DNA of 64,000 bases from Candidatus Levyibacteriota bacterium (GTDB lineage: Bacteria; Patescibacteriota; Microgenomatia; Levybacterales; UBA12049): the NCBI GenBank assembly GCA_029260905.1, contig JAJDCH010000009.1, positions 26,498 through 90,497 on the forward strand, given 5' to 3'. The number at the start of each line of letters is the position of its first letter. Position 1 is the stretch's first letter. Shown here one piece after another: positions 5,319-52,541 of the stretch. The notes under the pieces were generated by a model. The model was not told the DNA's origin. It saw only the letters and a program-made list of their open reading frames with translations, and searched no databases. Position numbers and translations under genes: made by a program.

Positions 5319-6602
5319 GTGGATAAAAACCAGAAATCAGCACTTGATAGTGATTTATTTGAAGAATTTAGATATCTCTACTTTGATGACTACGAATACT
5401 TAGCTACAGAAGACGAGAACAGGGAGAAGAACAAAAAAGATTTCCTTGCTGAAAAAATTGACAACCCCTCTTTTAACTATCCCCTACTGGATTCCTTTGA
5501 TTTTGAGAGTAAAAAAAACAAGTTTATCCAATTAAAAGAAAAGGCTAAAAAAAATAAAAACCAAATAGTTACAAAAGCATATATTGGGCGAATTGATGAG
5601 ATGCTAGAACAAATTGAGATGTTAAAAGCAGCAAAAACAGGTGATGATCTTGAGTTTACTAAACAATCAGTACTTATCTATGGCAAACCATCCCCCGATA
5701 TGTTTGAGTACGATAAAAAAGTGGTAAGTGACACAATTAAAAAAGCGCTTGAATCAGAAAGTTTAGAACGGGCAACTGCGACAACCCTGCTTCAAAAACA
5801 TTTTCCCGATCTTTCCTACAATAAATTGATTGAAAAAGATTTTGACCTTTTACCAAAACTTGTAAAAAATGATAGAAAAGTACTTAAATCAACTGAAATA
5901 AGATATATGTTTGAAAAAGCTGTGAAAGATCTGGATCTTAATAATTGGAAAGTAAAAATTGATAAAACAGGCAAAAAGACAAACCTAAGTGCCAATCAGG
6001 AAACAAAAACAGTCAGTATACCAAATGATGATAATATAAAAACCCGCATGGCGCCTACAACTGAGACAAATATCAAAGCATTAATCAACCATGAGCTAGG
6101 AACGCATGCAAAAAGGCGCGAGAATGGAGAAAAAAGCAAATTAAAACTTCTCGGACTTGGCCTTGATAGATTCCTAAAGGGCGAGGAGGGTCTTGCGTCT
6201 TTTGAATATCAAAAAATACAAGGCGCAAGTTATTTTGCTGGCTTTGGAAGTCATTTCTCAGTATCAATTGGGGTAGGACTTGACGGAAAAAAAAGAAACT
6301 TTAGAGAAGTTTTTGAAATACTAAAACTTTATTTTCTGGCATCAATCGAATCAGATACAGACAGAAAAAAACAGGCAGAGGATCTTGCCTGGAATACCTG
6401 CGTGAGGTGTTTTCGTGGAACAACCTGCAAAACACCAGGCAGCCTATTTACAAAAGGACATGTCTATAGTGAGGGAAATATTGGTATCTACAAACTAATT
6501 ACTTCTGGATCAAAAGAGGTTGAGAGATTTATGGTTGGCAAATATGACCCGACCAATAAAAACCACGTCCAAATCCTTGACGCATTGGGAATTTGGTGCT
6601 AA
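5319..6602 (+). CDS. putative HExxH metallopeptidase, DUF1704 / MATCAP-like (QEGLA-motif family)
   Basis: NHELGTHAKRR (HExxH), then GEEGLASFEYQ about 35 aa later, resembling the QEGLA motif of DUF1704 proteins; GTG start. Confidence 0.4.
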   Translation: MDKNQKSALDSDLFEEFRYLYFDDYEYLATEDENREKNKKDFLAEKIDNPSFNYPLLDSFDFESKKNKFIQLKEKAKKNKNQIVTKAYIGRIDEMLEQIEMLKAAKTGDDLEFTKQSVLIYGKPSPDMFEYDKKVVSDTIKKALESESLERATATTLLQKHFPDLSYNKLIEKDFDLLPKLVKNDRKVLKSTEIRYMFEKAVKDLDLNNWKVKIDKTGKKTNLSANQETKTVSIPNDDNIKTRMAPTTETNIKALINHELGTHAKRRENGEKSKLKLLGLGLDRFLKGEEGLASFEYQKIQGASYFAGFGSHFSVSIGVGLDGKKRNFREVFEILKLYFLASIESDTDRKKQAEDLAWNTCVRCFRGTTCKTPGSLFTKGHVYSEGNIGIYKLITSGSKEVERFMVGKYDPTNKNHVQILDALGIWC

Positions 6603-7854: not shown

Positions 7855-7892
7855 CTACAATCTCAATGACTTGCACTGAGCTTGTCGAAGTG

Positions 7893-7965
7893 TGGGCCAG
7901 GGAGGACTCGAACCTCCGACATGGAGTGTATAAGACGCCCGTTCTAGCCGCTGAACTACTGGCCC
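7893..7965 (-). tRNA. tRNA-Ile-like with UAU anticodon (putative AUA decoder)
   Basis: Reverse complement GGGCCAG-TA-GTTC-AGCGGCTA-GAAC-G-GGCGT-CTTATAC-ACTCC-ATGTC-GGAGG-TTCGAGT-CCTCC-CTGGCCC-A. Acceptor and D-arm are Ile-like. One C·U mismatch in the anticodon stem. Confidence 0.5.
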
Positions 7966-8013: not shown

Positions 8014-10407
8014 CTACAGCCTAGCTCTTTCACCTATTTCACTCTCAACCAAATCAACGCTTTTACCATATTTAAGGCGGGATAATTCTGTTACAAGCTG
8101 TGCAACACGCTCATTCTTTATTGCCTTTTCTTTCTCAACGTCTTTGGTTGTATCAAGTGAAAATGGTGGAATTGGTTCCCCACCAACTATTGTTCTCATA
8201 TAAGCATTATATTTATCAATATTTATCAAGTCGTTTTCATTAAATGTCGGCTGAAACTCATGTTGAAGGTAGTTTGCATCTGTCACACCAACGCGGAATG
8301 ATGCAATAGTACCTACATTTCCAAAAATAGCATTTTTAATCTCCTCCTCCATTTGTCCAATAAACTGATTAGCAACAATCAGGTTCAAACGGTATTTTCG
8401 TGCCTCTGATAGGATTTGCGCGAAATCAGGAGTTGCGAAATTCTGAAACTCATCAACATAAAGGAAAAAGTCTTTCCTCTGGTCCATTGGCATATCCTGC
8501 CTACTCATAGCAGCAACCAAAATACGAGGAACAAGTATTAAGCCCAAGAAATTAGCATTTTCCTCACCAATTTTTCCTTTGGAAAGGTTGATAAGAAGTA
8601 TTTTTTTCTCATCCATTACCTTTCTAAAGTCAAAAGAACTTTTTGATTGACCAATTATGTTTCTGATCATTTTATTGGTAACAAAACGACCAAATTTTGA
8701 TGTGATGTAATCAAGAACTTCAGATTTGTGAAAATCAGATGTTTGAGCAATTTGATCTGTCCAATAACGTCTAATGATTGGATCCTCGACTTTTGGCAAA
8801 AGCTCCTGAACAAATGCCTGATCTGTCAAAACGCGGACAACCTCAATAAAAGTTGATCCTTCCTGATACATAACTGTCAACATCGCGTTTCTGACAGCGT
8901 GTTCAAATCTCGGTCCAACAATACCTGTTTTGTTTGGATCAAAAAGCTTATACATTAAACCGATAATTGAGTTGACCATGAAATGTTTTTGCTGCTCTGT
9001 CTTTGCCTCAAGCATATTAAAACCCATTGGTCTATCCATGTCTGAGGGATCAAAAAGAATAACTTCTTCTGCTCTTTTGGGTGGAATAAGTTGCAAAATG
9101 TCTTCAACCAAATCTCCATGAGGATCTATAACAGCAAGCCCCTCACCTGCATTAATATCCTGCATGATCATAGTTTTAAGAAACTCTGATTTTCCAGTAC
9201 CTGTTTTACCAACAATATATGAGTGCCGTCTCCTGTCATCAAGTCCAATAAAAACAGGTTTACTAATGCCCCTAAAACTGCTTTTTCCAAGATACAAACC
9301 CTCTGTCGCGATTTTGGATGAAACGGGCGCTCTTTTAGCTGTCAACCAATGAACACCAGGTGTTGTGACTCCTTTGTTTGGGAAATGGAAAATAGTTGCC
9401 AATTCCTCACTGGTCATAATTGAAGTCTGTCCCCAGATCGGGAAGTAACGATAAATAAAATCATTCATGAACCAGCCCTTAAACCATGTCCGTGTCTTAA
9501 TAAACGAACTGAGACCACTTGTGAACTGTCCAAATGCACCTTTAATATTGGTCAAATGGGATTTGGCATCCTGTTTTGTTTTAGCACAAACAACAATTCT
9601 GACAAGCGCTTCAAAACCAGGCTTTGTCAGTTTATTCTCAATTCCTTCAAGTTCCTTGCTGTCAGCTTTATAAGTTGCTTTCTCAGGATTTGCTTCATTT
9701 TTTTTGACAGTTCCAATATATGATCTTCCTGCATACTTCCAGTGGCTACTTGCTGGAGATACAACTATTTGTATAACTGCACCCTCCTCCTCTCTCATCT
9801 TGGCAAGAACTGATGTAATTGATGCGAGTGGATCGATTGGAAGTTCCTTAAAAACTCTAATCGGATGGTAATTTGATCCTCTTAATCTAAGGGATATAAA
9901 TTCAACCTTACCTTCTTCTGAGAAGATATTATATTCTGATCCAATCAGTGTGCCCTTTCTTTGTTTTGCAGCAGGATCTGTGACAGGTATTATTTCTGCA
10001 TCAGGATATGCGCCATTTATCTGTTTTTCAACAAAATCGCGGTATTTTTGATTAACATGAATATAGAATCTAATATCCCCTGGCATTCCAACAATTTCAA
10101 ATGCTACGTGAGGTTGTGGCTTAAAAAATATTAATTTATCAGAATGTTTTGTGATACGAAGAGCAGCAAGGCTTGCAAACATTTGTTCTGCTGCGTCTAT
10201 TTTTATTTCATTATCCCTTGGCACTGCTACTTGCAGAAGGACTGAATCAAGCGCGTCTGATTCACGCGTTCGATGTCTTATCCAGAGAAGAAAAACGTAG
10301 CCTGCTCCGTAAAAAATAAAGAACATTAAGCTAACGCTCACCACAATCCAGACAAGTGTTATTAAAAAACTAAATGGATCGTTTTGAATTAACTGCAACT
10401 GATCCAT
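8014..10407 (-). CDS. type IV secretion coupling-protein-like ATPase (VirD4/TraG/TraD family) with N-terminal TM hairpin
   Basis: Two N-terminal TM helices; Walker A YIVGKTGTGKSEF; AVIDPHGD; C-terminal FFLYVDEFQNFATP...RKYRLNLIVANQFIGQM resembling the TraG-D_C region; Walker B ILLINLSKG. About 350 extra aa lie between the TM hairpin and the NTP-binding domain. Confidence 0.55.
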   Translation of the reverse strand: MDQLQLIQNDPFSFLITLVWIVVSVSLMFFIFYGAGYVFLLWIRHRTRESDALDSVLLQVAVPRDNEIKIDAAEQMFASLAALRITKHSDKLIFFKPQPHVAFEIVGMPGDIRFYIHVNQKYRDFVEKQINGAYPDAEIIPVTDPAAKQRKGTLIGSEYNIFSEEGKVEFISLRLRGSNYHPIRVFKELPIDPLASITSVLAKMREEEGAVIQIVVSPASSHWKYAGRSYIGTVKKNEANPEKATYKADSKELEGIENKLTKPGFEALVRIVVCAKTKQDAKSHLTNIKGAFGQFTSGLSSFIKTRTWFKGWFMNDFIYRYFPIWGQTSIMTSEELATIFHFPNKGVTTPGVHWLTAKRAPVSSKIATEGLYLGKSSFRGISKPVFIGLDDRRRHSYIVGKTGTGKSEFLKTMIMQDINAGEGLAVIDPHGDLVEDILQLIPPKRAEEVILFDPSDMDRPMGFNMLEAKTEQQKHFMVNSIIGLMYKLFDPNKTGIVGPRFEHAVRNAMLTVMYQEGSTFIEVVRVLTDQAFVQELLPKVEDPIIRRYWTDQIAQTSDFHKSEVLDYITSKFGRFVTNKMIRNIIGQSKSSFDFRKVMDEKKILLINLSKGKIGEENANFLGLILVPRILVAAMSRQDMPMDQRKDFFLYVDEFQNFATPDFAQILSEARKYRLNLIVANQFIGQMEEEIKNAIFGNVGTIASFRVGVTDANYLQHEFQPTFNENDLINIDKYNAYMRTIVGGEPIPPFSLDTTKDVEKEKAIKNERVAQLVTELSRLKYGKSVDLVESEIGERARL

Positions 10408-10409
10408 AC

Positions 10410-10931
10410 TTACTCTTCCACCTTCCTTTCTTTTACTGAAAAATTAAAAACCTTCCACTGCTCAAGAATAAGCGTTGCAAGCCATCTCAACCCACTTCTT
10501 ATCTTGGATTTCTTTTGCGCAATGGTTGCATCTTCAAAACTCATCGGCAAATCTGGCTTTTGCTGATCATCAATAATAGCAAGCTCCATTGGCGCATTTT
10601 CATCAGTCAACACAACCCCAAGCTCCTCAATATCCTCAGGTAGAGAATTTGATAGACTGTCTGGTCCAGGTTTTACAAATTCTGAAACCTCAGGTGATAT
10701 AACTGCTTCAGATTTTGATTCCTCAACGATTTTCTGCTTTTCCACCTTAGCATCAACTGATATTGGATCATGTTCTGGGTGAACTGAGGCAGGCACAGTT
10801 GGTTTATCAACCAATGATTCTTTCGGTGTATTTGAAACCTCTTGTACGGGTCGATCCGCAATAGGTGTTGGCGCCTGCATTCTAGTTCCAACCTTGCCTT
10901 GAACTGATTGTGTCTGAGTGCTATTGTCCAT
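10410..10931 (-). CDS. hypothetical acidic/Pro-rich protein, translationally coupled to the downstream coupling ATPase
   Basis: Stop lies 2 nt from the start of the 8014..10407 gene; low-complexity N-terminal two thirds. Confidence 0.35.
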   Translation of the reverse strand: MDNSTQTQSVQGKVGTRMQAPTPIADRPVQEVSNTPKESLVDKPTVPASVHPEHDPISVDAKVEKQKIVEESKSEAVISPEVSEFVKPGPDSLSNSLPEDIEELGVVLTDENAPMELAIIDDQQKPDLPMSFEDATIAQKKSKIRSGLRWLATLILEQWKVFNFSVKERKVEE

Positions 10932-11018
10932 AAGATCATATTATCACGAAGGAGTAATATGTAGCAATTTCAGCTAAAGGTTGATCACCTACTTTACAAA
11001 ATTAAGCTAAAAATATCT

Positions 11019-11186
11019 TTATAAAACTTCCCCTGGCTTCCAGCCACAGTCAGGACACGCAGTTATGTCTCCAACCATGATTTTCTGATAATCATCATTA
11101 TCTGCGCTCCAGCGACAGCGCAGACAAATTATCTTAAAACACTCTTCACATTCTTCTTTATTTACTGTTTGTTTAATAATGTCCAT
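11019..11186 (-). CDS. small zinc-ribbon protein (55 aa), not in the ORF track
   Basis: Manual translation MDIIKQTVNKEECEECFKIICLRCRWSADNDDYQKIMVGDITACPDCGWKPGEVL has two CxxC pairs. Confidence 0.3.
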   Translation of the reverse strand: MDIIKQTVNKEECEECFKIICLRCRWSADNDDYQKIMVGDITACPDCGWKPGEVL

Positions 11187-11232
11187 AACTACTTAGCAAT
11201 AAAAACAATCGGATAATTGAACAATGCTTGGC

Positions 11233-11772
11233 CTACCTCTTAACCCAAATCTTCTCTTTTTTCTTTTCCAAAGAATTGGCATATCTTGCCATTGTAAAAA
11301 GGAGATCAGACAAGCGATTAAGATAAATAACGATATTTTTATCGATTTTTTCTTTCCCAGACATTTTTATAACTGCTCTCTCAGCCCTTCTAGCAACTGT
11401 ACGCGCAATATGAAGATGCGCACCGGTCAATCCTCCACCCGGCAGAATAAAGTTCTTTAGATCAGGCAGTTTCCCTGTCATCTTATCAATCAATTTTTCA
11501 AATTCTCCCACCCGTCCATCAACACCCTCAACGGGAAGTGGGTGTGGCATAGCAAGAGCTGAACCTATTTCAAACAAGTCATGTTGAATCCCCTCAAGTT
11601 CTGTTCTTAGTTCTTTGTTCTTGGTTCCCAGTTGCGCGATGGCAACTCCAATTACAGAATTCAACTCGTCAATTGTCCCATACGCACCAACTCGCACATG
11701 ATATTTAGGAACTCTCGTCCCATCAAAAAGCGAGGTCTTTCCTTTATCTCCTGTTCGTGTATAAATCGGCAT
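11233..11772 (-). CDS. ATP:cob(I)alamin adenosyltransferase, PduO type
   Basis: N-terminal MPIYTRTGDKGKTSLFDGTRVPKYHVRVGAYGTIDELNS is the PduO/MMAB signature. Confidence 0.75.
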   Translation of the reverse strand: MPIYTRTGDKGKTSLFDGTRVPKYHVRVGAYGTIDELNSVIGVAIAQLGTKNKELRTELEGIQHDLFEIGSALAMPHPLPVEGVDGRVGEFEKLIDKMTGKLPDLKNFILPGGGLTGAHLHIARTVARRAERAVIKMSGKEKIDKNIVIYLNRLSDLLFTMARYANSLEKKKEKIWVKR

Positions 11773-11775
11773 AAA

Positions 11776-11900
11776 ACAAAAAATCCTAATATCTAAACCC
11801 TAAACACTAAACAAATATTAATATCAAAATTCTAAAACTCAAATGATTTTTTTAATTTGGGTTTTGATATTGTTTAGAAATTAGAAATTAGAACTTAGGA
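11776..11900. repeat. long AT-rich imperfect inverted repeat (about 55-nt arms) between the nrdJ stop and the adenosyltransferase start
   Basis: Arm 11781-11842 and the reverse complement of 11857-11905 share AAATCCTAA...CTAAACAA(TA)TATCAAAA; the ends pair (AAATCCTAA / TTAGGATTT). Confidence 0.3.
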
Positions 11901-11901
11901 T

Positions 11902-26171: not shown

Positions 26172-26258
26172 CGGAGGGAGGGGGATTCGAACCCCCGATA
26201 ATCTTTCGACCATACGAGCTTTCCAAGCCCGCGCACTCGACCACTATGCGATCCCTCC
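26172..26258 (-). tRNA. tRNA-Ser (GGA anticodon)
   Basis: GGAGGGA acceptor, anticodon loop TTGGAAA, long variable arm, T-arm GGGGGTTCGAATCCCCC; 87 nt. Confidence 0.7.
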
Positions 26259-26344
26259 TATTTGGGTATTGTAACAAAAACACCTCAGCCAGTCACCCAA
26301 ACCACCTTGACAACCCCCTCAAAATACATCACACTAAAATTAGT

Positions 26345-34043: not shown

Positions 34044-34469
34044 ATGAAAAAGGCACAAAACATAATCTTAGCTTTATTTGTCGCTCTATCTCTTTTTGTC
34101 TTTACACCAGCTGTTGTTTTTGCTGGTCCTACGATAAATCCATGTCCAGACGGAGCTGACGGAGGCGGAACTGACTTCGGCAACCTTTGCGACCTTGACG
34201 CTGACCAAGTCGGTCCATTGATTTCAAGAGTTGTACAGATTCTTCTTATCGCTGCTGCAATTATTGCTCTTTTCTTTCTCATCTGGGGAGGTATTCGCTG
34301 GGTAACATCAGGTGGAGACAAAGCCAAGGTAGATGAAGCCAGAAAACACATTGTTGCTGCAATAATTGGTCTGATTATTGCTTTCCTAGCATTCTTTATC
34401 TTAAGTTTTGTACTTAACCTCTTTGGAATAAGCCTTACTGAATTACAGCTTCCACAGCTTACTCCATAA
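34044..34469 (+). CDS. VirB2/TrbC-like small membrane protein (pilin candidate), paralogue 2
   Basis: Signal peptide, then TM-loop-TM with FFLIWGGIRWVTSGGDKAKVDEARKH. Confidence 0.45.
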   Translation: MKKAQNIILALFVALSLFVFTPAVVFAGPTINPCPDGADGGGTDFGNLCDLDADQVGPLISRVVQILLIAAAIIALFFLIWGGIRWVTSGGDKAKVDEARKHIVAAIIGLIIAFLAFFILSFVLNLFGISLTELQLPQLTP

Positions 34470-34514
34470 ACCTAAACTTGCTTTTCTACCCACGTCTTTG
34501 ATAGGCTAAATAAA

Positions 34515-34919
34515 ATGACACAAATTAAAAAATCCTTTGTTTTTTTCTTAATGCTTACAGGCTTATTTGCTATGCTCCCAAGTCCAGCTCTCGCAAACAG
34601 CTGGGACAGTTGTGTTAAAAAGCTTCCAGCCGGAGGCGAGGTCCCAACTCTTAGATGTTTTCCGGTTGTATTTAGCAATCTTACCAGCACAGCTCTTACA
34701 TTTGTGGGCGCAGTTGCTGTAATTCTTATTGTCTATTCGGGCATCAAATTTGTAACATCAGGTGGAGATCCCAAGAAAGTCGGTGAAGCTCGAGCAATTA
34801 TGACCTATGCGATAATTGGTGCAGTAATAGTTCTGCTATCTTTTACAATAATTTATCTGATTAGCTACTTTACAGGCGCGGATTGTGTAACTGATTTTTC
34901 TATTGGAAGCTGCAATTAA
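34515..34919 (+). CDS. VirB2/TrbC-like small membrane protein (pilin candidate), paralogue 3
   Basis: Signal peptide, then TM-loop-TM with ILIVYSGIKFVTSGGDPKKVGEARAI. Confidence 0.45.
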   Translation: MTQIKKSFVFFLMLTGLFAMLPSPALANSWDSCVKKLPAGGEVPTLRCFPVVFSNLTSTALTFVGAVAVILIVYSGIKFVTSGGDPKKVGEARAIMTYAIIGAVIVLLSFTIIYLISYFTGADCVTDFSIGSCN

Positions 34920-35035
34920 AACGGTGGTTTGGCCTCTTTTCATCAAAACTTTTCACAAAAACCCTGTCAATCTGGATCATTTGACACACTTTGTTCCGGT
35001 TGAAATGCTATTTTTCACATTATACACTGATTGAA

Positions 35036-36397
35036 ATGGACCAGCACCCAATACCCCAAGATGTTACAGGCTTTCAATTTAAGCTTATTGGAAGCATGAC
35101 TGTAAAACAGTTTGGCTTTGTTGCAACTGGGGTTATAATGGCAGTTCTTTTCTACTACCTGCCACTTAGCGGGTTTTTTGGTATTCTTTTCAAGATTTTT
35201 GCAATTCCCTTTTTTGGAGCAAGTGGCTTTATAATTGCATTTGTACCAATTGATGGCAGGTCAATTGATGTAATGGTCGGAAATTTTACTAAAGCGCTTT
35301 TTTCTCCCAATCAGTACGTCTATCACAAACTCGGCAAAAAATTTAGCTTCTCAACAGTCAATACTCACAAGAGTCTTTTTGCCCAAAATCAAACCACCAG
35401 CTCTCATCCAAAACAAGAAGTAACACAAAAAACAGATCAGCTTCGATCATTTCTAAAAGAAAGCGTCAAATCAAAACCAAAAAGCGCATTAGATGAAAAA
35501 GAAGCTGCTTTTATCAGCTCTTTTGCTCCAGCACCTCAAACAACTCCCCAAGCGGCCATTTCTTCACATCCAACAAAAAACATACCCATGCTTCAGCAAG
35601 CACAACAAATACTGTCATCTATAAAGCCGGTTCAAACCATTACGCACCAAACACCTAACCAAACCCCTCAACAAACAAAAAAGGCCATCCAAGATACTAC
35701 AAATCCAATTGATCAAAATAACCCAACTAGTAAAAATGTGCCTGAGCATAATCAAGCACCAGCTGCAAAACCAATAGACGCAGAGCCTGACTCGCTTCAT
35801 AAACAAATTCAAGAAGCGCATAACCAAAAACTCAGACTAGAAAAAGAATTGGCTGATTTAAAAGCTCAACTAGGCACGCGTAAAACCCAACCAGAACCTG
35901 AACCATCTCAAGCAGCAACACAGATGTCTTCAACGACAACCACCCCTGCTCAACCAACAAAACCAACAGAAACAAACACTATGCCTGCTACACAGCCTCA
36001 ACAAGCGACAACGTCAGTTGCTCCAACACCAAGCTCAACACACGTAAGAAGTATTCCAAAAGAACAATCTAAAAAAATGGGTCTTCTCGCGCCAGATACT
36101 CCAAATGTCATAGTTGGTGTAGTCAAAGACGCCAGAGGCAATCTTCTCCCAAACGTGCTTGTTGAGGTCAAAGACAGGGAAGAAAACCCAGTTCGCGCAT
36201 TTAAAACAAATCCTCTTGGACAGTTTGTTTCAGCAACCCCTCTTTTACCGGGCGCGTATACAATAAGCCTTGAGGACCCCAAAAAACAACACACATTTGA
36301 TGAGATTCAGATAACGGCAGGCGGCCAAATCTTACCACCCATTGAGATAATTTCTTATGACGCCAGAGAACAACTAAGAAGAGAGTTGTTTAATTAA
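35036..36397 (+). CDS. PrgI/VirB3-like membrane domain fused to a Q/T/P-rich linker and a C-terminal carboxypeptidase-regulatory-like beta-sandwich domain
   Basis: N-terminus MDQHPIPQDVTGFQFKLIGSMTVKQFGFVATGVIMAVLFYYLP...FVPIDGRSIDVMVGNF matches the PrgI-family pattern; C-terminus VIVGVVKDARGNLLPNVLVEV...GAYTISL is CarboxypepD_reg-like. Start placed at the internal Met. Confidence 0.45.
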   Translation: MDQHPIPQDVTGFQFKLIGSMTVKQFGFVATGVIMAVLFYYLPLSGFFGILFKIFAIPFFGASGFIIAFVPIDGRSIDVMVGNFTKALFSPNQYVYHKLGKKFSFSTVNTHKSLFAQNQTTSSHPKQEVTQKTDQLRSFLKESVKSKPKSALDEKEAAFISSFAPAPQTTPQAAISSHPTKNIPMLQQAQQILSSIKPVQTITHQTPNQTPQQTKKAIQDTTNPIDQNNPTSKNVPEHNQAPAAKPIDAEPDSLHKQIQEAHNQKLRLEKELADLKAQLGTRKTQPEPEPSQAATQMSSTTTTPAQPTKPTETNTMPATQPQQATTSVAPTPSSTHVRSIPKEQSKKMGLLAPDTPNVIVGVVKDARGNLLPNVLVEVKDREENPVRAFKTNPLGQFVSATPLLPGAYTISLEDPKKQHTFDEIQITAGGQILPPIEIISYDAREQLRRELFN

Positions 36398-36409
36398 TTT
36401 ATATAACTT

Positions 36410-37093
36410 ATGCCTGTTCAAAAAGCACATGCTACAACGCAAAAATTTACAGAGATTGTTGACTTTGTCGACAATCTGGTAATCCTTGAGGGGGGAGCTG
36501 CTTGCCTTGTGATTGAAATAACAGCTAGCAACTTCTCGCTTCTATCCAGAAGAGAGCAGGATTCTCGTATTTTTTCTTACGCTTCGCTTCTTAATTCACT
36601 TTCTTTTCCAATACAAATACTTATCAGAAATAAAAAAATGGATATATCGCTTTATCTAAGAGAGCTAGATGCTGTTGTTAAAAGCACCAAAAACGAACAA
36701 CTGGCAACATATATTGATTATTATCGAGATTTTGTTCAGGAAATGGTGACAGTAAACGTTGTTTTAAACAAAGCTTTTTATATCGTCATTCCATTTTCAT
36801 CACTTGAGCTGGGCATTGGTGGAGCAACAAAACAAGCAACAAAAAAAGGCTCTCCAGCCCCATCTCAAAAAGATGTTTTTGCTCAAACAGCTGCAAAAGC
36901 TCTGCAATCAAAGGCAAGCTCAGTCCTTGGACAGCTTCAAAAATTTGCGGTAACAGCTCGTGTTCTTGAAAAGGAAGACCTAGTGAAGCTTTTTTATGAT
37001 ATATACAATGACGGCGCAAATATAGGAACTGAGCAGGTAAAAGATGCTGCAGATACTCCAATCATAAGAAAAGAAGGAGAAGTTCAAGCATGA
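36410..37093 (+). CDS. hypothetical protein, possibly the detached N-terminal domain of a split VirB4
   Basis: EIVDFVDNLVILEGGAACLVIEITASNFSLLSRREQDS resembles the VirB4 N-terminal region. ATGA overlap with the downstream VirB4 ATPase gene. Confidence 0.3.
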   Translation: MPVQKAHATTQKFTEIVDFVDNLVILEGGAACLVIEITASNFSLLSRREQDSRIFSYASLLNSLSFPIQILIRNKKMDISLYLRELDAVVKSTKNEQLATYIDYYRDFVQEMVTVNVVLNKAFYIVIPFSSLELGIGGATKQATKKGSPAPSQKDVFAQTAAKALQSKASSVLGQLQKFAVTARVLEKEDLVKLFYDIYNDGANIGTEQVKDAADTPIIRKEGEVQA

Positions 37094-39144
37094 AAATCCC
37101 ATTTTTAAATAAATCATCCAAACAAACACCCACCTCACAAGTGGTAAAAAAAGCGCAAGGCGTTCCCCAACAAAAAACTGCACCTCAGGTTGTAAAACCG
37201 CAACAAAATAAAGCTATTGCAACGCTTGAGAAGGGCGCAACGTCAGTTATTGACATAATAGCTCCCTCATCTGTTGAAGTTGACTTTCGTTATGTCAGGG
37301 TTGGCGAGACCTATTACACAACTCTTTTTCTCGCTGGCTATCCACGCTATGTTTCTCCAGGCTGGCTAACGCCAATTATTGATTATGACCATACATTGGA
37401 TATCAGCATGTTTATTTACCCAACCTCATCATCAGACGTTCTTAGTGATTTAAAAAGAAAAATTGGTGAAATGCAAGCAACTATTTCATCTGATGCAGAA
37501 GCAGGCAAAGCAACAGACCCGACAGTTGAGGCGGCGCTTGAAGACGCGCTTGGTCTTCAGGAAGAGCTAGCCAAGGGAGTTGAGAGATTCTTCCAGTTTG
37601 GTTTTTATATCACTGTTTCAGCAGGAGACCTGGGAGAACTCCAAGAAACAACCAAAGAATTAAAAACCACACTAAGCTCTCTTCTTCTTGCAGGCAAAAC
37701 AGCAACTCTTCAGTCAGAAGAAGGCTTTAAGTCAACTCTTCCAATCGGACAAGACAGGCTTTATATAACACGAAATATGGATACCACCTCTCTTGCAACC
37801 ACCTTTCCCTTCACATCAGCTGTTTTAACTCAAAATAAAGGCGTAATGTATGGAGTGAATCAACAGAATGGGTCACTTATCATCTTTGACAGATTTTCCC
37901 TTGAAAATGCCAATGAGGTGGTTCTTGGAAAATCTGGCGCGGGAAAATCTTACACAATTAAGCTTGAAATCGCCAGACAATTCATGCTTGGCGCAGAGGT
38001 TATTGTAATTGATCCTGAAGGAGAGTATGGAACACTTACTCCAACCCTCGGAGGTGAGACAGTTGATTTTTCATCAAACTCCGAAGTAAAACTAAACCCT
38101 TTTGACCTTGCAGATGTTTATGAAGAGGGCGAAAACCAATTGGGGTTGAAGATTCTTTCTCTACACGGACTTCTAAAAATAATCATGGGGGACATGGATG
38201 CAGAGCATGATGCTATTCTAGACAGAGCCTTAATTGAAACTTATCGTCAAAAGGGAATAACTACCGACCCTGCAACCCAAAAAAAACAACCCCCACTTAT
38301 GGAAGATCTTTATAAAGCGCTCCTTGGCATGGAAACACAAACTGCAAAAGACCTAGCTTTCAGGCTCGAGAAATTCATCAAAGGTTCTGCTGCTGGGATT
38401 TTTAATCAACAATCAAACTTCGTAATCGACAATCCTCTAACAGTTTTTTCAATCCGAAACCTTGAAGAGGAGTTAAGACCAGTTGCAATGCACATCATTC
38501 TTGATTTTGTCTGGACAAAGGTTAAAAAAACTCTTAAAAAAAGAATTCTGATCCTTGATGAAGCATGGTACATGATGAAATATCAGGACTCTGCATCGTT
38601 TGTCTACTCAATTGCAAAAAGAGCGCGTAAATACTACCTTGGCATGACCACGGCTACACAAGATGTCGAAGACTTTCTCAAAAACGAATATGGCAAGGCG
38701 GTTCTCACCAACTCATCAATCCAAATACTTCTTAAGCAAGGGACTGCTGAGGTCGATATGATCGCTGATACGTTTTATTTATCGGAGGGAGAAAAGGCCC
38801 TTCTTCTTTCATCTGATGTAGGGGAAGGACTTTTCTTTGCCGGACAAAACCATGTAACCATGAAGGTGTTTGCAGCGCCTTTTGAGCATGAATTGATAAC
38901 ATCCAATCCTCAAGAGGTTATGAAACGACAAGAAGAAGAAAAGGCAGAAAGAGACACTGAGGCAGCAGAGTCAGCTTCTCAAGCTCCACAAGCAGCACAG
39001 CAGACCACAACACAACAACCTAGCCCTCAGACAACACCACAAACACCTGCTCCTGAAGCGCCAGCTGCTCCCCAAGCCCAAAATTCCACAACTCCAACTA
39101 CTACACCTCCGGGTGTTCCCCCAACTGCTCAGCAGACATCATAG
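37090..39144 (+). CDS. VirB4/TrbE/CagE-family type IV secretion ATPase (ATPase portion) with Pro/Gln/Thr-rich C-terminal tail
   Basis: Walker A VVLGKSGAGKSYTIK, VIVIDPEGEY, Walker B RILILDEAW, and the upstream GYPRYVSPGWL region typical of VirB4. Confidence 0.7.
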   Translation: MKIPFLNKSSKQTPTSQVVKKAQGVPQQKTAPQVVKPQQNKAIATLEKGATSVIDIIAPSSVEVDFRYVRVGETYYTTLFLAGYPRYVSPGWLTPIIDYDHTLDISMFIYPTSSSDVLSDLKRKIGEMQATISSDAEAGKATDPTVEAALEDALGLQEELAKGVERFFQFGFYITVSAGDLGELQETTKELKTTLSSLLLAGKTATLQSEEGFKSTLPIGQDRLYITRNMDTTSLATTFPFTSAVLTQNKGVMYGVNQQNGSLIIFDRFSLENANEVVLGKSGAGKSYTIKLEIARQFMLGAEVIVIDPEGEYGTLTPTLGGETVDFSSNSEVKLNPFDLADVYEEGENQLGLKILSLHGLLKIIMGDMDAEHDAILDRALIETYRQKGITTDPATQKKQPPLMEDLYKALLGMETQTAKDLAFRLEKFIKGSAAGIFNQQSNFVIDNPLTVFSIRNLEEELRPVAMHIILDFVWTKVKKTLKKRILILDEAWYMMKYQDSASFVYSIAKRARKYYLGMTTATQDVEDFLKNEYGKAVLTNSSIQILLKQGTAEVDMIADTFYLSEGEKALLLSSDVGEGLFFAGQNHVTMKVFAAPFEHELITSNPQEVMKRQEEEKAERDTEAAESASQAPQAAQQTTTQQPSPQTTPQTPAPEAPAAPQAQNSTTPTTTPPGVPPTAQQTS

Positions 39145-39167
39145 AGCTTTTTTGCTACTATTAAACT

Positions 39168-40445
39168 ATGGACATTGAGAACAAATTACCAGAAGAAGAT
39201 CAATCAGAAGAACAAGAAAACAATGACCGATCTAGCCCCTCAAATCCCAGCTCCAATGGCAGGGGTGAAAAAAAGGAAGCCAAGAACGAAGTAAAACAAA
39301 ACAAAAAAGAAAATATTGACAAAAACGATCAAAAAGCTAAGGGCAAAGATGATGCTCTCAATCAACAACACAGCAAAGATAAAGGGCTAGGACTTTTAAG
39401 CAAAAAATTAAAGGCTGTTCGCGAAGCAAAAAGAGGAGAGAGGCTTAAGGCTGCAAAAACCTTAGCCAAAAGCGCAATCAAAAAAAAAGTTTTGCAAGCT
39501 GCTAAAAAAGGTCTTATTGCTGGTGGAAACACCATTGCGCCTGGACTTGGTACTGCTACAGGGTTTGCTATAGATCATCCCAAAACAGCTGCAATTATTG
39601 TTGTCTTGGCCATTACACTTCCAATTATAATATTAACTATGGTTTTTTCTGCATTTACCAGTTCTTTAAACACTTCTGGTGAGGGTGATTCCGTTTTTGT
39701 TTCAGGCTCTTGTCCACATGATGCGATTGCTGGCGGCGTGGCAGAATGTTCGATAAACGTTTCTTATCCTGGAGAAGCATCAGACATACTAATTTCAATT
39801 GACCTTCCACCTGGCACTGAATATATCGACTCTGTGCCTGAAGCCACTTTTGACGGCAAGACCATCTCGTGGAGTCTTATTGGCCCAAACCCCTTACCAA
39901 ACGCAAAACTAAGCAATGTCAACACAACCCTGCTTTTCCATCTACGTGGAAGTGGTGTTCCCTCGGCAAGCCTACCCATTGCTTACTCGATTGTTCCATT
40001 TGTTGAATCAGAAACCCCCATTCAAGAAGCATTAAACAATTCTGGTTGTGATGGATCAACCCCGAATAATCCTCATGGAAATTTTGGCAACCCAAATTGC
40101 GATTTTAATAAAAATGAATTGGGTAAAATTTTAAGAAGAGAAGACCCTGCCAACGCATACAAATGGGATGCAATAATAGCTTGTGAGAGTACATACAACC
40201 CAAACGCCTATAATCCAAATTCCTCTAGTGGAAAAGGGGCATATGGGCTTTTGCAGATGAATCCCGCACAACAAAGAACTGATATTTATAGATTTGATGC
40301 TGGAAATGTAAACTGGAACCCAGACAGTAGGCCACTTGGTGTTGCAGCAGGAGCACAGGTTACAAACGCAATAAACTATAATACTATTGGATTGAAAGGA
40401 AGTTTCAAGTATTGGGAATGTAGAAAGGCAGCTGGAATAAGATGA
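39168..40445 (+). CDS. membrane-anchored cell-wall hydrolase: DUF11-like repeat domain plus Rpf-type lysozyme-like transglycosylase domain (VirB1 functional analogue)
   Basis: K-rich N-terminus, TM (AAIIVVLAITLPIIILTMVF), DUF11-like SINVSYPGEASDILISIDLPPGTEYI, and C-terminal WDAIIACESTYNPNAYNP...GKGAYGLLQMNP resembling the Rpf transglycosylase-like domain. Confidence 0.5.
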   Translation: MDIENKLPEEDQSEEQENNDRSSPSNPSSNGRGEKKEAKNEVKQNKKENIDKNDQKAKGKDDALNQQHSKDKGLGLLSKKLKAVREAKRGERLKAAKTLAKSAIKKKVLQAAKKGLIAGGNTIAPGLGTATGFAIDHPKTAAIIVVLAITLPIIILTMVFSAFTSSLNTSGEGDSVFVSGSCPHDAIAGGVAECSINVSYPGEASDILISIDLPPGTEYIDSVPEATFDGKTISWSLIGPNPLPNAKLSNVNTTLLFHLRGSGVPSASLPIAYSIVPFVESETPIQEALNNSGCDGSTPNNPHGNFGNPNCDFNKNELGKILRREDPANAYKWDAIIACESTYNPNAYNPNSSSGKGAYGLLQMNPAQQRTDIYRFDAGNVNWNPDSRPLGVAAGAQVTNAINYNTIGLKGSFKYWECRKAAGIR

Positions 40446-40981
40446 TAAACATAGACAAAAAATACATTTTACTAGGAGCGCTTTTTTTAACTCTTGTGTT
40501 TGTGCTTGTGTTAATTGCAACCGGATCAGTCGGAGCGCCAGTTGCAGAGGACCAGTCAACAATTCCAACACAATCACCTATTGATGGCAATCTTGATCAA
40601 GCCAACACAATTCCACCCGTCACATACAATACTGATGCAAGTAAAAAACAGATTGAGAAAAAAGAAAACAGAATTCCTTTGACTCAATCTGATCTTGATG
40701 CCAAACAAGAAATTCTTTCCCTTCTGCCTGAAGGGCAGAGCTATGGAATTATTTATTCGTCAGAAAATTTCAATATTGAATACGTAGAGTCTTTAGATTT
40801 GATAAAGGTAGAAATTTTGTCAAACAGTATTGAAGATATTAAAACCGAAGCTGTTAACTGGTTTAGGGATCAAGGATTGAGCCAGGAGGGAGTTTGCAAC
40901 TATCCGGTTGATTTTTATCTAGGTTCTGGCGTTGTCCCGGATGGCGGAGAAATATTTAGCCCTATTGCGCCAGGTTGTTGA
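40442..40981 (+). CDS. hypothetical bitopic membrane protein (N-terminal TM plus about 150-aa external domain), possible VirB8/PrgL-like component
   Basis: Topology and size only; ATGA overlap with the upstream gene. Confidence 0.3.
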   Translation: MINIDKKYILLGALFLTLVFVLVLIATGSVGAPVAEDQSTIPTQSPIDGNLDQANTIPPVTYNTDASKKQIEKKENRIPLTQSDLDAKQEILSLLPEGQSYGIIYSSENFNIEYVESLDLIKVEILSNSIEDIKTEAVNWFRDQGLSQEGVCNYPVDFYLGSGVVPDGGEIFSPIAPGC

Positions 40982-40993
40982 GAGTTTTAAAAT

Positions 40994-41698
40994 TTGTTTA
41001 TGAGAAAAAAATTAAATATTTTGTTTATATTTTTAATGATCTCTGTTTTTTCAATCATTAACCCCCTAATTGTCTCTGCTCAGACGGGAATTGCTTGTAT
41101 TGATGTTTATTTTGACCCAGGCGCACCTAAACCAGATCCAGCAGAGGGTTGTCCTGATGTGGCTGCACCGGGAGAAATACCAAGCGCTGACAGGACAGCT
41201 CTTTTACAACAAATTTCTACTTTTATTAACAATGGCACCATCTCTTTTTCTCATGACAATGACAAAAACGCAATGCTTGGTAACGGTATTGTCCAGAGGA
41301 GGGTTGGAACCGGAACTGTAGAAATAAGCACTAAGGCGCTACGAATGTATGTTTATATGGCTAATCAGGGTTTTAAATTCAACGTTTCATCTATGATAGG
41401 AGGACACTCAAGGTGTGTTAAGGGGTCTAGTCCTTGCCGCGAATCTGCCCATTGGTCAGGAAGAGGAGTTGATATTAACAATATAAATGATTTTGATATA
41501 GACACAAACAGGTCTAGGGAATCCCAAAATACATTAAAAAATTTTATGATTGTTTTAAACAATATGCCGACAGAGATTTCCCCTCGTCAAATAATTTGCT
41601 CTGGCAATGGTGTGGTAGACTCCTCTGTCTTAGCTTTACAAAAGGGTGTAAGTGGTATTGTTGATGGGCACCTAGATCATGTTCATATAGGTTATTAA
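40994..41698 (+). CDS. secreted peptidase M15-family (VanY/endolysin-like D-Ala-D-Ala carboxypeptidase fold) cell-wall hydrolase
   Basis: Signal peptide; SAHWSGRGVDIN (S-x-H-x-x-G-x-x-x-D zinc motif) and C-terminal DHVHIGY. Confidence 0.45.
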   Translation: MFMRKKLNILFIFLMISVFSIINPLIVSAQTGIACIDVYFDPGAPKPDPAEGCPDVAAPGEIPSADRTALLQQISTFINNGTISFSHDNDKNAMLGNGIVQRRVGTGTVEISTKALRMYVYMANQGFKFNVSSMIGGHSRCVKGSSPCRESAHWSGRGVDINNINDFDIDTNRSRESQNTLKNFMIVLNNMPTEISPRQIICSGNGVVDSSVLALQKGVSGIVDGHLDHVHIGY

Positions 41699-41699
41699 T

Positions 41700-42284
41700 A
41701 TGGATAAAGTGAACTTTCTCAAAAAAAATAAATGGATATTCAGCTTGGTTGTGTTTATTGTTTTTTTGCTGGGCGCATTCTCACTTATTCCATCAAGCAC
41801 CAATCAATTTCCTGAAGAAATTACCCCCACCAGATCTCCTGAGTCAAGTCAAAATGGGTTTTCTGAAGAAGATCCAAAAAATTTTGCTCATGAATATGAG
41901 TTTGATCCCTTAATCGTAGAAGGAGCGACCAATCAAGAGGTATTAACAGACGGAACAATAATATATTCTGTTCCTTCAGAAAACCCAAACCGACCAGATG
42001 AAGTTTATGTAAAAAATGGTCTTATTGTTTTTAAAAGTGTATATATTCCCATAAGCTGGACTATGAAGCTTTCTGAGCTTGTAGAATTTACGGGTGATCC
42101 TCCGTGGATTTTTGAAGGGTCTAAATATTATGGTGACACAATAAGGGTTTATGTTTACCCTGATATGGGGCTTGCATTGATTGTGGATGAAGATAAAGAT
42201 TTAGTGTTGGAGCAACACCTTTTTGACCCCATGCCTGTTGAGCAATACATTGAAAGGTATGGGGAGGATATCCCTGCGCGTTAG
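41700..42284 (+). CDS. hypothetical bitopic membrane protein
   Basis: N-terminal TM WIFSLVVFIVFLLGAFSLIP; no motif. Confidence 0.35.
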   Translation: MDKVNFLKKNKWIFSLVVFIVFLLGAFSLIPSSTNQFPEEITPTRSPESSQNGFSEEDPKNFAHEYEFDPLIVEGATNQEVLTDGTIIYSVPSENPNRPDEVYVKNGLIVFKSVYIPISWTMKLSELVEFTGDPPWIFEGSKYYGDTIRVYVYPDMGLALIVDEDKDLVLEQHLFDPMPVEQYIERYGEDIPAR

Positions 42285-43396: not shown

Positions 43397-43644
43397 ATAA
43401 CTATTTTAGTTGTTGTAGTAGTCTATCTGGAAAAGTGGAAAAAATCAACTTATAAATATCTTATAAAGAAATTTATATAAATTAGTTTATCCACCAAATC
43501 AACCTTTTTTTTTAAAAAAACAAAATATAATAATGCCAAACCTCATTAAACCATAGGCATAAAAAATGTGGATAAAATGTTTAAATCTTTCTGTATAAAA
43601 TGTTAACAAAAAAATAACAAAAACTTCTTAACAAATTATCCACG
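43397..43644. other. oriC-type region: AT-rich dnaA-dnaN intergenic spacer with three DnaA boxes
   Basis: TTATCCACC at 43487-43495; TGTGGATAA (perfect reverse-complement consensus) at 43567-43575; TTATCCACG at 43636-43644 overlapping the dnaA stop; T10A7 tract at about 43496-43515. Confidence 0.7.
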
Positions 43645-52100: not shown

Positions 52101-52541
52101 ATGAAGATTACCAACAAAAAGGCCTTTTTTGATTTTGAAATTAGAGAGAAGTTTGAAGCAGGCATAAATCTGACTGGAGCTGAGGTCAAGGCAATACGCT
52201 TGGGGCACGCTGATTTGACAGGAGCATTTGTCAAAATAAAAGGACTGGAAGCCTATCTAGTAGGCTCAAAAATTTTCCCATATGAATATGCAAGACCTGA
52301 TAATTATGATTCAATGCGAACAAGAAAACTGCTTTTGCATAAAAAAGAATTGATCTCGCTTAAGTCCAAAATTGAGGGCGCGAACTTGACTTTGGTGCCT
52401 GTTTCATGGTATACTACAAGTCGCCTGATTAAGCTTGAGGTAGCGCTTGGAAAATCAAAGAAGAAGTTTGACAAAAAAGCAGCAATTAAGAAAAAAGATC
52501 TTGATCGTGAACAGGAAGAACTTTTAAAGAATAAATACTAA
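52101..52541 (+). CDS. smpB: SsrA-binding protein
   Basis: NKKAFFDFEIREKFEAGINLTGAEVKAIR...LLLHKKEL; followed by tmRNA. Confidence 0.85.
   Translation: MKITNKKAFFDFEIREKFEAGINLTGAEVKAIRLGHADLTGAFVKIKGLEAYLVGSKIFPYEYARPDNYDSMRTRKLLLHKKELISLKSKIEGANLTLVPVSWYTTSRLIKLEVALGKSKKKFDKKAAIKKKDLDREQEELLKNKY

Follow-up and report, generated by a model that had tools for sequence, protein, structure and literature searches.

[quoted passage not shown]

A common ATPase gene preceded by a small partner gene

The window analyzed here is a 64,000-nucleotide stretch of contig JAJDCH010000009.1 from a Candidatus Levyibacteriota bacterium. On its minus strand, two adjacent genes encode a 797-residue ATPase and a 173-residue partner protein, with the following features.

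10410..10931, minus strand: 173-aa partner of the ATPase (ORF, 2-nt spacer, Shine-Dalgarno sequence)
10446..10550, minus strand: conserved C-terminal motif of the partner, residues 128–162, LPMSFED...SGLRWLATLILEQWK
8014..10407, minus strand: 797-aa DUF8128-type ATPase of the VirD4/VirB4 family, type A paralog group (ORF, homologues, Pfam and NCBIfam profiles, fold searches)
10273..10377, minus strand: single N-terminal transmembrane helix, residues 11–45
9283..10272, minus strand: N-terminal domain, residues 46–375, Pfam PF26449 (DUF8128), VirB4-NTD-like fold
8017..9282, minus strand: RecA-type ATPase domain, residues 376–797, with a helical insertion at about 471–599
9187..9210, minus strand: Walker A, GKTGTGKS, residues 400–407
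8449..8466, minus strand: Walker B, FLYVDE, residues 648–653, with D652 and E653 invariant

The ATPase gene is no chance ORF: NCBI contains an identical protein, and among over 6,700 scored homologues the best 120 are 72–80% identical to it over the full length. Identity between Microgenomatia orders is 61–80%, the composition of the gene is that of its flanks, and a XerC-like recombinase is encoded 2.8 kb away. A scan for promoters and terminators gave a result no better than shuffled sequences. The window gene itself is an unremarkable ortholog within a very common family.

The TAA stop codon of the partner gene is followed by GT and then by the ATG of the ATPase, with the Shine-Dalgarno sequence GGAAGGTGG directly 5'. 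This agrees with the original prediction of a translationally coupled upstream ORF, and the two genes are likely coupled in this way. As had also been proposed, the partner is acidic and proline-rich (net charge −11, E 11%, P 8.7%); its N-terminal part is predicted to be disordered, its C-terminus to form a basic helix, and a Pfam search returned no match. Among 77 related loci, 67 have an ORF of 108–281 aa whose end lies about 80 nt or less from the start of the ATPase, and in 53 the distance is 12 nt or less. Partner sequences are not alignable between classes; the C-terminal motif has the consensus LPmsd.Qaa.glK..ki.dS.rWLAelc.rqwkk, and 48 of 58 partners share its W-L-A core. A gene for a Zn-ribbon protein of about 465 aa, which often lies 5' of the partner in relatives, is missing from the window.

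A single membrane helix, a VirB4-like N-terminal domain and a RecA-type motor

The original prediction described a coupling protein with an N-terminal transmembrane hairpin and an insertion of about 350 aa. The N-terminus has a single hydrophobic run of some 32 residues (12–43), and the AlphaFold2 model has one continuous helix at residues 11–45; the anchor is therefore a single transmembrane helix and no hairpin. In this it differs from R388 TrwB (PDB 1e9r) and Legionella DotL (7ovb), which have two transmembrane helices with a periplasmic loop. From the basic sequence RHRTRE that follows the helix, an N-out/C-in topology is predicted. A comparable anchor is present in 54 of 76 representatives of the type A paralog group and 25 of 29 of type B, the two groups being described below.

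About 330 residues (46–375) do lie between anchor and motor, but as a separate N-terminal domain and not as an insertion in a VirD4 scaffold. In precomputed Pfam annotation, PF26449 is assigned to the identical NCBI protein (P0001) and to all 120 best homologues, and the 797-aa protein thus has the layout of a PF26449 N-domain followed by a DUF87/TrwB_AAD_bind ATPase. Residues 1–380 had no Pfam or NCBIfam match in a search whose Pfam copy was without PF26449. In a check on the structure of this domain, which the original prediction had proposed, the VirB4 N-terminal domain was the only fold match by two methods, and on the modeled structure the extra residues are a VirB4-N-terminal-domain-like module; the full-length model is of moderate quality (pLDDT 67.6, pTM 0.48). 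The relation is visible by fold comparison only, as hhalign of the N-domain with the TrsD-like and VirB4 proteins encoded elsewhere in the window gave no match.

The motor carries Walker A, DPHGD (residues 428–432), FLYVDE(FQNF) (648–657) and ANQ (679–681), motifs that the original prediction had named and that do not vary among 38 homologues. It is a RecA-like nucleotide-binding domain with Walker A and B motifs and a TrwB-like structure. Its fold scores were 21.4 for TrwB, 20.9 for DotL, 20.6 for the VirB4 C-terminal domain, 21.5 for DptH and 11.6 for FtsK, so that the motor fold does not distinguish VirD4, VirB4 and DptH. The helical insertion is positioned like the all-alpha domain of type IV coupling proteins and is spanned by the TrwB_AAD_bind match; VirB4 C-terminal domains also carry a helical bundle.

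By sequence profiles, the motor domain is closest to conjugative coupling proteins. The three Pfam families named for checking in the original prediction all score above their gathering scores: T4SS-DNA_transf (35.1 bits, cut-off 20.1), TrwB_AAD_bind (31.8 bits, cut-off 20.5) and TraG-D_C at residues 649–712 (24.7 bits, cut-off 22); DUF87 (33.7 bits) is above its gathering score as well. FtsK_SpoIIIE, the match that would have spoken against this assignment, reached 20.7 bits, under its cut-off of 24, and the protein has neither the alpha/beta plus gamma organization of an FtsK motor domain nor the HAS-barrel N-domain and HerA motor, usually accompanied by NurA, of HerA. Of the NCBIfam models, the VirD4-like family CD1115 matches best, with 58.7 bits where 250 are required, and SXT_TraD reaches 49.2 bits where 366 are required; no named coupling-protein equivalog or subfamily model reached its cut-off. 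Similarity to VirD4/TrwB lies mostly in the Walker A region (E ~1e-3 to PDB sequences), the only part matched in a profile search against PDB sequences.

The motor motifs and Pfam matches agree with the coupling-protein layout of the original prediction; the overall order of transmembrane helix, VirB4-like N-terminal domain and ATPase is the layout of VirB4, and two transmembrane helices joined directly to the nucleotide-binding domain, as in coupling proteins, are replaced by one helix and a 330-residue globular domain. These comparisons raise the idea of a second VirB4-like assembly ATPase, resembling a VirB3-VirB4 fusion, that energizes pilus or channel biogenesis and takes no part in substrate selection. 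The order of domains fits, the N-domain matches VirB4 alone, the motor scores about as well against VirB4 as against TrwB, and the VirB4 of the secretion cluster described below has a short N-terminal part, the remainder being split off as the TrsD-like gene. However, the profiles strongly favor coupling proteins over VirB4_plasma (17.2 bits) and VirB4_CagE (11.7 bits), the Pfam VirB4 families P-loop_TraG and CagE_TrbE_VirB do not match, and hhalign to the VirB4 of the window aligns only residues 388–479, around Walker A. Unlike R388 TrwK (7o42/8rtd) and the VirB4 of T. pseudethanolicus (C-terminal domain, 4ag5), the ATPase belongs to no VirB4 sequence model (TIGR00929 and CD1110 included), its gene is not beside a VirB3/PrgI gene, and a bona fide VirB4 is encoded elsewhere in the genome. 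We therefore regard a second VirB4 as unlikely.

A T4SS-like cluster near dnaA and the surroundings of the ATPase gene

The window holds one further feature of interest, identified with Pfam and NCBIfam.

34044..42284, plus strand: origin-proximal T4SS-like cluster, putative functional partner of the ATPase

This cluster encodes two T4SS pilins, a PrgI-like protein (468 aa), a TrsD-like protein (227 aa) with NCBIfam matches to the TrsD/VirB4 N-terminal part, a 684-aa VirB4 of the CD1110 family (392 bits, cut-off 325), an SLT hydrolase and three proteins of no assigned function; dnaN and dnaA are located at 42281–45000. No coupling protein was found within the cluster by Pfam or NCBIfam. CD1110 and CD1115, the latter the best match of the ATPase, are neighboring families in NCBIfam numbering, and we assume for both an origin in one C. 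difficile CTn-type monoderm element. Together with the placement of Patescibacteria VirB4 in the monoderm MPF-FATA class (Quinonero-Coronel et al., 2025; PMC12102498), these matches suggest that the ATPase and the cluster share ancestry.

The cluster starts 23.1 kb from the start of the partner gene, which bears out the distance in the earlier description of an ATPase encoded 23 kb from the rest of its system; membership in that system is an assumption, since none of 80 related loci has a T4SS gene (VirB4, pilin, PrgI, SLT) within 6 kb. The view of a coupling-type protein without a relaxase was supported: neither a relaxase nor a second coupling-like gene was found in the 54 scanned ORFs among the 56 of at least 120 aa in the window, the other two (52101–52541 and 58240–58689) both being shorter than 150 aa. 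In a published survey of 3,035 Patescibacteria genomes, only 103 had a relaxase (PMC12102498).

The neighbors conserved across the 80 related loci are NrdR, class II RNR, cobalamin adenosyltransferase and the XerC-like recombinase. The RNR synteny is absent from the loci L085, L087 and L092 outside Microgenomatia; being confined to Microgenomatia, it possibly reflects inherited gene order only. Outside that group, gene order gives no support for a functional connection of the ATPase with XerC or RNR.

These surroundings bear on two readings of the ATPase, both of which we consider very improbable. A classical coupling protein that serves an integrated conjugative element in DNA export, or is a remnant of one, would account for the Pfam coupling-protein matches and the nearby recombinase. 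Against it, the scanned ORFs of the window include no relaxase, relaxases are rare in the phylum, and the gene is unlinked to mating-pair-formation genes and occupies a fixed chromosomal site among housekeeping genes in the 80 loci, the recombinase is syntenic too, and the gene matches its flanks in composition and is under strong purifying selection. The second reading is an ATPase of the DptH/DndH/mad8 or HerA kind that works in defense or DNA repair. Here the conserved neighborhood lacks a nuclease, methylase, NurA, Sir2 or Dnd partner, and the N-domain is VirB4-like, with no HAS barrel, and differs from that of the DptH/DndH C-domain proteins, PADLOC mad8 and HerA. Moreover, the family is near-universal, syntenic and well conserved across orders, unlike patchy defense islands, and its counterpart in Ca. 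Southlakia epibionticum is essential.

Two paralog groups and fitness data from Southlakia

Clustering of 147 representatives yielded two deep groups, type A and type B. The motor domain of the window protein has a mean identity of 49.3% to cluster 1 and 42.9% to cluster 2, and the protein is of type A, with a type A motor, a small coupled upstream ORF and no sigma/HARE-HTH gene. Type A members are usually paired with a small acidic disordered partner bearing a conserved basic C-terminal helix. Type B proteins, of the SEML1_0293 type, are about 920–1,000 aa long and 33–37% identical to the window protein, compared with 40–50% within type A; they have no small acidic partner and are encoded directly 3' of a Sigma70_r4+HARE-HTH gene. 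This is the arrangement at L087 and L089, and SEML1_0293 comes after SEML1_0294 in just this way.

At locus L092, which holds the cluster-1 member P0144, the order is small ORF, ATPase, 187-aa protein, DUF11/PKD protein, gyrB and gyrA, the same as SEML1_0141 to SEML1_0146 of Southlakia. Synteny and clustering, and not a comparison with the Southlakia sequence itself, thus suggest that type A includes the SEML1_0141/0142 pair. Like the window pair, it consists of a small upstream ORF and a large ATPase with a P-loop domain from about residue 380 (PMC10633639), and both belong to Patescibacteria-enriched families. The Southlakia ATPase has 1,019 aa, and Saccharimonadia and WWE3 relatives carry long low-complexity C-terminal tails that the window ATPase lacks. 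A Rosetta-stone search of the C-terminal extensions of relatives of 1,000–2,000 aa found no Pfam domain; they are Pro/Ala-rich or otherwise of low complexity. One relative, 53% identical in the motor, has TPR repeats fused to it and comes from a contig that is GC-rich and non-CPR-like, where no T4SS gene lies within 9 kb; a search with this protein (P0162) gave only 4 matches.

In the fitness data for Southlakia, SEML1_0142 is scored ES/ES/ES and SEML1_0141 GD/ES/ES, the pattern of the VirB4 SEML1_0008 and most T4SS genes, and the dispensable type B gene SEML1_0293 is NE/NE/NE (Wang et al., 2023; PMC10633639). That study in Cell reported no recognizable coupling protein; the later survey described the Southlakia homologue of the SEML1_0293 type as a non-essential t4cp, possibly exapted (Quinonero-Coronel et al., 2025; PMC12102498). 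Essentiality in Southlakia is compatible also with an essential role independent of the T4SS. A substitute for FtsK was rejected as an explanation, given the low FtsK fold score and a canonical FtsK that is present and essential in Southlakia.

A proposed role at the T4SS platform

The ATPase can be described as a cytoplasmic-membrane-anchored member of the FtsK-HerA superfamily, on its VirB4/VirD4 branch, built of a transmembrane helix, the DUF8128 domain and the motor, and its family is present in nearly all Patescibacteria. With about even confidence, we propose that it is a type A motor that docks on the dnaA-side T4SS and drives or gates substrate passage. The N-terminal domain would dock the ATPase, presumably a hexamer, to the relaxase-less chromosomal T4SS at its inner-membrane platform, on the model of the VirB4 N-terminal domain with VirB3/VirB8 in R388, and the C-terminal helix of the partner may bind the same platform. 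By hydrolyzing ATP, the motor would power or gate the passage of a substrate, protein or nucleic acid, through that T4SS.

In support of such a role are the domain, motif and fold matches, the ancestry suggested to be shared with a cluster that has no coupling ATPase of its own, the paralog split, the Southlakia fitness pattern and the conservation of partner and ATPase. The survey counts are listed on this side too: of the 3,035 Patescibacteria genomes, 2,918 (96%) have VirD4-like homologues, only 148 of 5,713 homologues lie near virB4, and relaxases are confined to 103 genomes (PMC12102498). Against the role speak the lack of linkage to T4SS genes in the 80 loci, an abundance greater than that of VirB4 (80% of genomes), the TPR-fused relative in a non-T4SS context and the missed equivalog cut-offs. 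The lack of linkage, the greater abundance and the TPR-fused relative, with the stable NrdR/RNR/adenosyltransferase synteny, agree with a T4SS-independent essential membrane translocase. Working alone or with other partners, it would move nucleic acid or protein across or along the membrane, with nucleotide or RNA/DNA acquisition, envelope biogenesis and division as possible purposes. The survey does not settle what these homologues do and raises exaptation (PMC12102498), and host-RNA uptake, by a motor not known, has been reported for a Patescibacterium. On the other side, the RNR synteny ends at Microgenomatia, the close structural relatives of both domains are found only among T4SS ATPases, the Southlakia fitness pattern is that of T4SS genes, and DNA segregation and uptake already have canonical FtsK and Com proteins. 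We judge such a translocase possible, and less probable than a motor docked on the T4SS.

As a long shot, the type A ATPase, in which a docking domain of the VirB4 kind is joined to a motor of the VirD4 kind, would be an intermediate that has survived from between VirB4 and coupling proteins and, with its disordered partner, would supply the missing essential motor of the Patescibacteria T4SS. It would draw host RNA/DNA or other cargo into the epibiont, in place of exporting DNA, and would thereby feed the NrdR/RNR nucleotide-salvage genes next to which it lies in Microgenomatia.

Patescibacteria make up a large share of bacterial diversity, and the one species tested depends on a relaxase-less, pilus-bearing T4SS. 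The two paralog groups, the placement of the essential Southlakia pair in type A and the VirB4-type docking fold provide concrete, testable candidates for the energizing of this system, and these findings are also relevant to the divergence of VirB4 and VirD4.

Gene pair and domain architecture

An acidic 173-aa protein (the partner) and a 797-aa VirD4/TraG-like ATPase had been predicted as neighbors, and both reading frames are present as described. The predicted motifs were likewise all found, and each is invariant across 38 aligned homologues.

Features of the gene pair
8014..10407, (-), ATPase ORF, 797 aa
10410..10931, (-), partner ORF, 173 aa
ATPase residues 400-407, Walker A, GKTGTGKS
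ATPase residues 428-432, DPHGD
ATPase residues 648-657, Walker B, FLYVDEFQNF
ATPase residues 679-681, ANQ

Only two bases separate the TAA stop of the partner from the ATG of the ATPase, and a Shine-Dalgarno sequence, GGAAGGTGG, lies within the 3' end of the partner gene; this arrangement makes translational coupling of the two genes plausible. The partner carries a net charge of −11 and is rich in E, V, S, K and P, in keeping with its predicted acidity, and has neither a TM segment nor a Pfam domain. A tRNA-Ile with anticodon UAU is encoded on the strand of the ATPase (7892-7965, (-)), 48 nt past its stop codon. Reading of AUA by tRNA-Ile(UAU) is uncommon among bacteria.

Residues 384-712 of the ATPase match the Pfam profiles T4SS-DNA_transf, TrwB_AAD_bind and TraG-D_C, as anticipated, as well as DUF87, each just over its gathering score, while FtsK_SpoIIIE falls under its own. 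The membrane anchor departs from the original prediction of a TM hairpin: there is one hydrophobic stretch (residues 12-43), a single helix (11-45) in the AlphaFold model. After this helix, the basic RHRTRE points to a single-pass anchor with a predicted N-out/C-in orientation. The extra residues before the motor, thought to be an insertion, are indeed present (~330 aa), but they form a separate domain, which exists in Pfam as PF26449/DUF8128 and is annotated on an identical database protein and every close homologue.

The modeled N-terminal domain resembles that of VirB4

A predicted model of residues 45-375 (pLDDT 77.5, pTM 0.79) was compared with solved structures by two methods. In Foldseek, TrwK/VirB4 chains fill the first 14 places, with E values of 4e-9 to 2e-6 and a probability of 1.0; one of these chains is 457 residues long, and the first match after them had an E of 1.5e-3. 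Because no P-loop proteins were among the fold matches, and because 253 aligned residues are more than the Hcp1 tag in 7o42 could supply, the modeled DUF8128 domain must resemble the N-terminal domain of VirB4. None of the sequence methods used detected this relationship, and the likeness therefore rests on predicted structure.

The fold of the motor, in contrast to that of the N-terminal domain, draws no such distinction.

Motor fold scores
DptH/DndH C-domain, 21.5
TrwB, 21.4 (324 residues aligned)
DotL, 20.9
VirB4 CTD, 20.6
HerA, 17.0
Cag-beta, 16.5
FtsK, 11.6
TcpA, 11.4

FtsK and HerA, the families that would have spoken against a VirD4/TraG assignment, score below TrwB. Taken by itself, the modeled fold is equally near VirD4, VirB4 and DptH and does not separate them. 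By sequence, the best NCBIfam scores were CD1115 VirD4-like (58.7 bits) and SXT TraD (49.2), against 17.2 and 11.7 for VirB4 models, and all are far under the curated cut-offs. The PADLOC model mad8 scores similarly to CD1115, at 55 bits. We consider a defense or repair ATPase very improbable. The motor profiles lean towards coupling proteins, and the ATPase combines a VirB4-type architecture (TM - NTD - CTD) with a motor that is closer to VirD4 by sequence profile. A second VirB4-like assembly ATPase would fit the architecture and sits poorly with this lean; we regard it as improbable.

Genomic setting

The window is chromosome rather than a mobile element. It encodes eight tRNAs, a tmRNA and housekeeping genes (MurD, class II RNR with NrdR, GAPDH, PGK, YidC, PBP1, dnaA-dnaN), and its nucleotide composition is uniform throughout. 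As predicted, a Pfam scan turned up no relaxase; it covered 54 of the window's 56 ORFs with 120 aa or more, and the other two (52101-52541 and 58240-58689) are both shorter than 150 aa. An ICE remnant is accordingly given very little probability. Among species-representative genomes, the nearest relatives of the ATPase are from Levybacteria (70-80% identity), followed by Gottesman-, Woese- and Amesbacteria (61-65%), and the organism is therefore a Patescibacterium of the class Microgenomatia.

34044-42284, (+), T4SS-like cluster, adjoining dnaN/dnaA and the cumulative GC-skew minimum

The cluster contains two T4SS pilins, a PrgI-like protein (468 aa), a TrsD-like protein (227 aa), VirB4, an SLT hydrolase and three unknowns; no coupling-type ATPase was found in it. 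Its position (window 34044-45000) agrees with the published origin-proximal location of Patescibacteria T4SS genes. Its VirB4 is bona fide, with a score of 392 bits for the NCBIfam CD1110 family, labeled VirB4-like, where the cut-off is 325. We take CD1110 and the VirD4-like CD1115 both to come from one C. difficile CTn-type monoderm conjugative element. A survey of T4SS genes across 3,035 Patescibacteria genomes grouped their VirB4 with the monoderm MPF-FATA class (Quinonero-Coronel et al., 2025; PMC12102498). The presumed shared origin and this placement hint at common ancestry of the ATPase and the cluster.

Several other genes were noted in the window. Between the ATPase gene and the cluster lie genes for a 699-aa multi-pass membrane protein with no Pfam or NCBIfam match (26246-28345, (+)), which could be a candidate VirB6-like channel component, and a 1,058-aa protein with no Pfam match (28342-31518, (-)). 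A 427-aa protein (5319-6602, (+)) matches Pfam MATCAP, the microtubule-associated tyrosine carboxypeptidase family, an unexpected name in a Patescibacterium. A ComFC-like protein with a double zinc ribbon and a phosphoribosyltransferase (51369-52064, (+)) means that a competence-type DNA uptake route exists apart from the ATPase.

The ATPase is unlinked to T4SS genes in 80 related loci

VirB4, pilin, PrgI and SLT genes lie within 6 kb of the ATPase in none of 80 related loci. Its recurrent neighbors there are cobalamin adenosyltransferase (59), RNR (53), an XerC-like recombinase (34) and NrdR (23). As this synteny is absent from WWE3, Saccharimonadia and the lineage of locus L087, this neighborhood is probably inherited gene order and not a functional operon. 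The motor type also extends beyond T4SS contexts: at locus L091, on a GC-rich, non-CPR-like contig, a 1,443-aa protein (9001-13332) fuses a motor 53% identical to that of the window to ~970 aa of TPR-containing sequence, with PEP carboxylase, acetyl-CoA synthetase and dihydroxyacetone kinase as neighbors; T4SS genes are absent for 9 kb around it. There are about 28 representatives of this kind.

The partner, by comparison, recurs. Of 77 related loci, 67 have an ORF of 108-281 aa whose end lies no more than about 80 nt from the start of the ATPase; in 53 of them the distance is at most 12 nt, with some ORFs overlapping the start. The partners are barely alignable overall; 48 of 58 share the C-terminal motif LPmsd.Qaa.glK..ki.dS.rWLAelc.rqwkk, and an acidic N-terminal part (median charge −7.5) precedes a basic last 45 residues (+4). 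About 25 of the 80 loci encode, between adenosyltransferase and partner, a ~465-aa protein that evolves fast and has a Zn ribbon at its C terminus (L001 7902-9314; L003 7801-9189); the window instead has a 300-nt gap (10932-11232). The partner motif is unrecognizable in Saccharimonadia and WWE3, where the ATPases bear a long disordered C-terminal tail that may stand in for the disordered partner. These tails span 230-1,180 aa and are Pro/Ala- or SPFG-rich (L092 7001-13021; protein P0126).

The window ATPase is an ordinary ortholog in a very common, already catalogued family. An exhaustive search, counted in clusters at 50% identity, returned 23,088 with E ≤ 1e-3, of which 6,160 reach E ≤ 1e-30. 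Protein length runs from about 780 to over 2,000 aa, and low-complexity tails without Pfam domains mark the long members. The survey counted 5,713 VirD4-type homologues in 2,918 of its 3,035 genomes, only 148 of them near virB4, and recorded VirB4 for 2,417 genomes and a relaxase for 103 (PMC12102498).

Two paralog groups

The motor domains of 147 representatives cluster into two deep groups, and the window protein belongs to the larger (mean identity 49.3%, versus 42.9% to the smaller). Supplementary tables for Ca. Southlakia epibionticum ML1 (Se) list two such proteins (Wang et al., 2023; PMC10633639). SEML1_0142 (1,019 aa, P-loop domain 381-800) is essential (ES/ES/ES) and has a 139-aa ORF, SEML1_0141 (GD/ES/ES), directly upstream, while SEML1_0293 (921 aa) is non-essential and lies directly downstream of a sigma-70-region-4/HARE-HTH protein (PMC10633639). 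The larger-group member P0144, on a 321-kb contig, sits in the order small ORF - ATPase - 187 aa - PF01345(DUF11)/PKD protein - gyrB - gyrA, identical to that of SEML1_0141 to 0146. In the smaller group, P0248 and P0164 follow a Sigma70_r4+HARE-HTH gene with a gap of 2-7 nt, the same arrangement as SEML1_0294 -> 0293. From this clustering and synteny, we infer that the window gene and SEML1_0141/0142 belong to one paralog group (type A).

Both types occur on the L087 contig (750-4560 and 9067-11823). The ~925-aa type there, and at L089 (2950-6976), begins 2-7 nt after a Sigma70_r4+HARE-HTH gene, which suggests a conserved regulator-ATPase pair.

The survey authors considered the Se ML1 homologue dispensable and possibly exapted (PMC12102498), and the Se T4SS was described as having no recognizable coupling protein (PMC10633639). 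What the literature calls the "non-essential t4cp" is, on this assignment, the other paralog, of the SEML1_0293 type. In fitness, SEML1_0141/0142 show the pattern seen for VirB4 (SEML1_0008) and for most T4SS genes.

Possible function

The ATPase is a single-pass membrane-anchored member of the VirB4/VirD4 family, of the type A DUF8128 group. Its most likely role, to which we give roughly an even chance, is as the unlinked coupling or energizing ATPase of the relaxase-less, origin-proximal T4SS, because the cluster lacks a coupling ATPase of its own, because the family and the cluster appear to share MPF-FATA-type ancestry, and because SEML1_0141/0142 and the T4SS genes share an essentiality phenotype in Se. 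The VirB4-like N-domain would be a plausible docking module, since in R388 cryo-EM the VirB4 N-terminal domain touches VirB3 and the tails of VirB8. Against a T4SS role stand the missing linkage, a family distribution wider than that of VirB4, relatives in non-T4SS contexts and a motor fold just as near DptH. The first three of these points would suit an essential translocase that works independently of the T4SS, which we hold to be a less likely though serious alternative; the shared fitness pattern speaks for the T4SS. A 2026 preprint reports that a cultivated Patescibacterium takes up host RNA via pilus-like tubes whose motor is not known, which makes a role for the ATPase in nucleic-acid import conceivable.

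As far as our searches show, the VirB4-NTD-like DUF8128 fold, the two-paralog split and the placing of the Se essential pair in the small-partner group are not in the literature; no paper was found mentioning DUF8128 by name. Resting on predicted structures and synteny, they offer testable leads on what energizes the essential T4SS of Patescibacteria.
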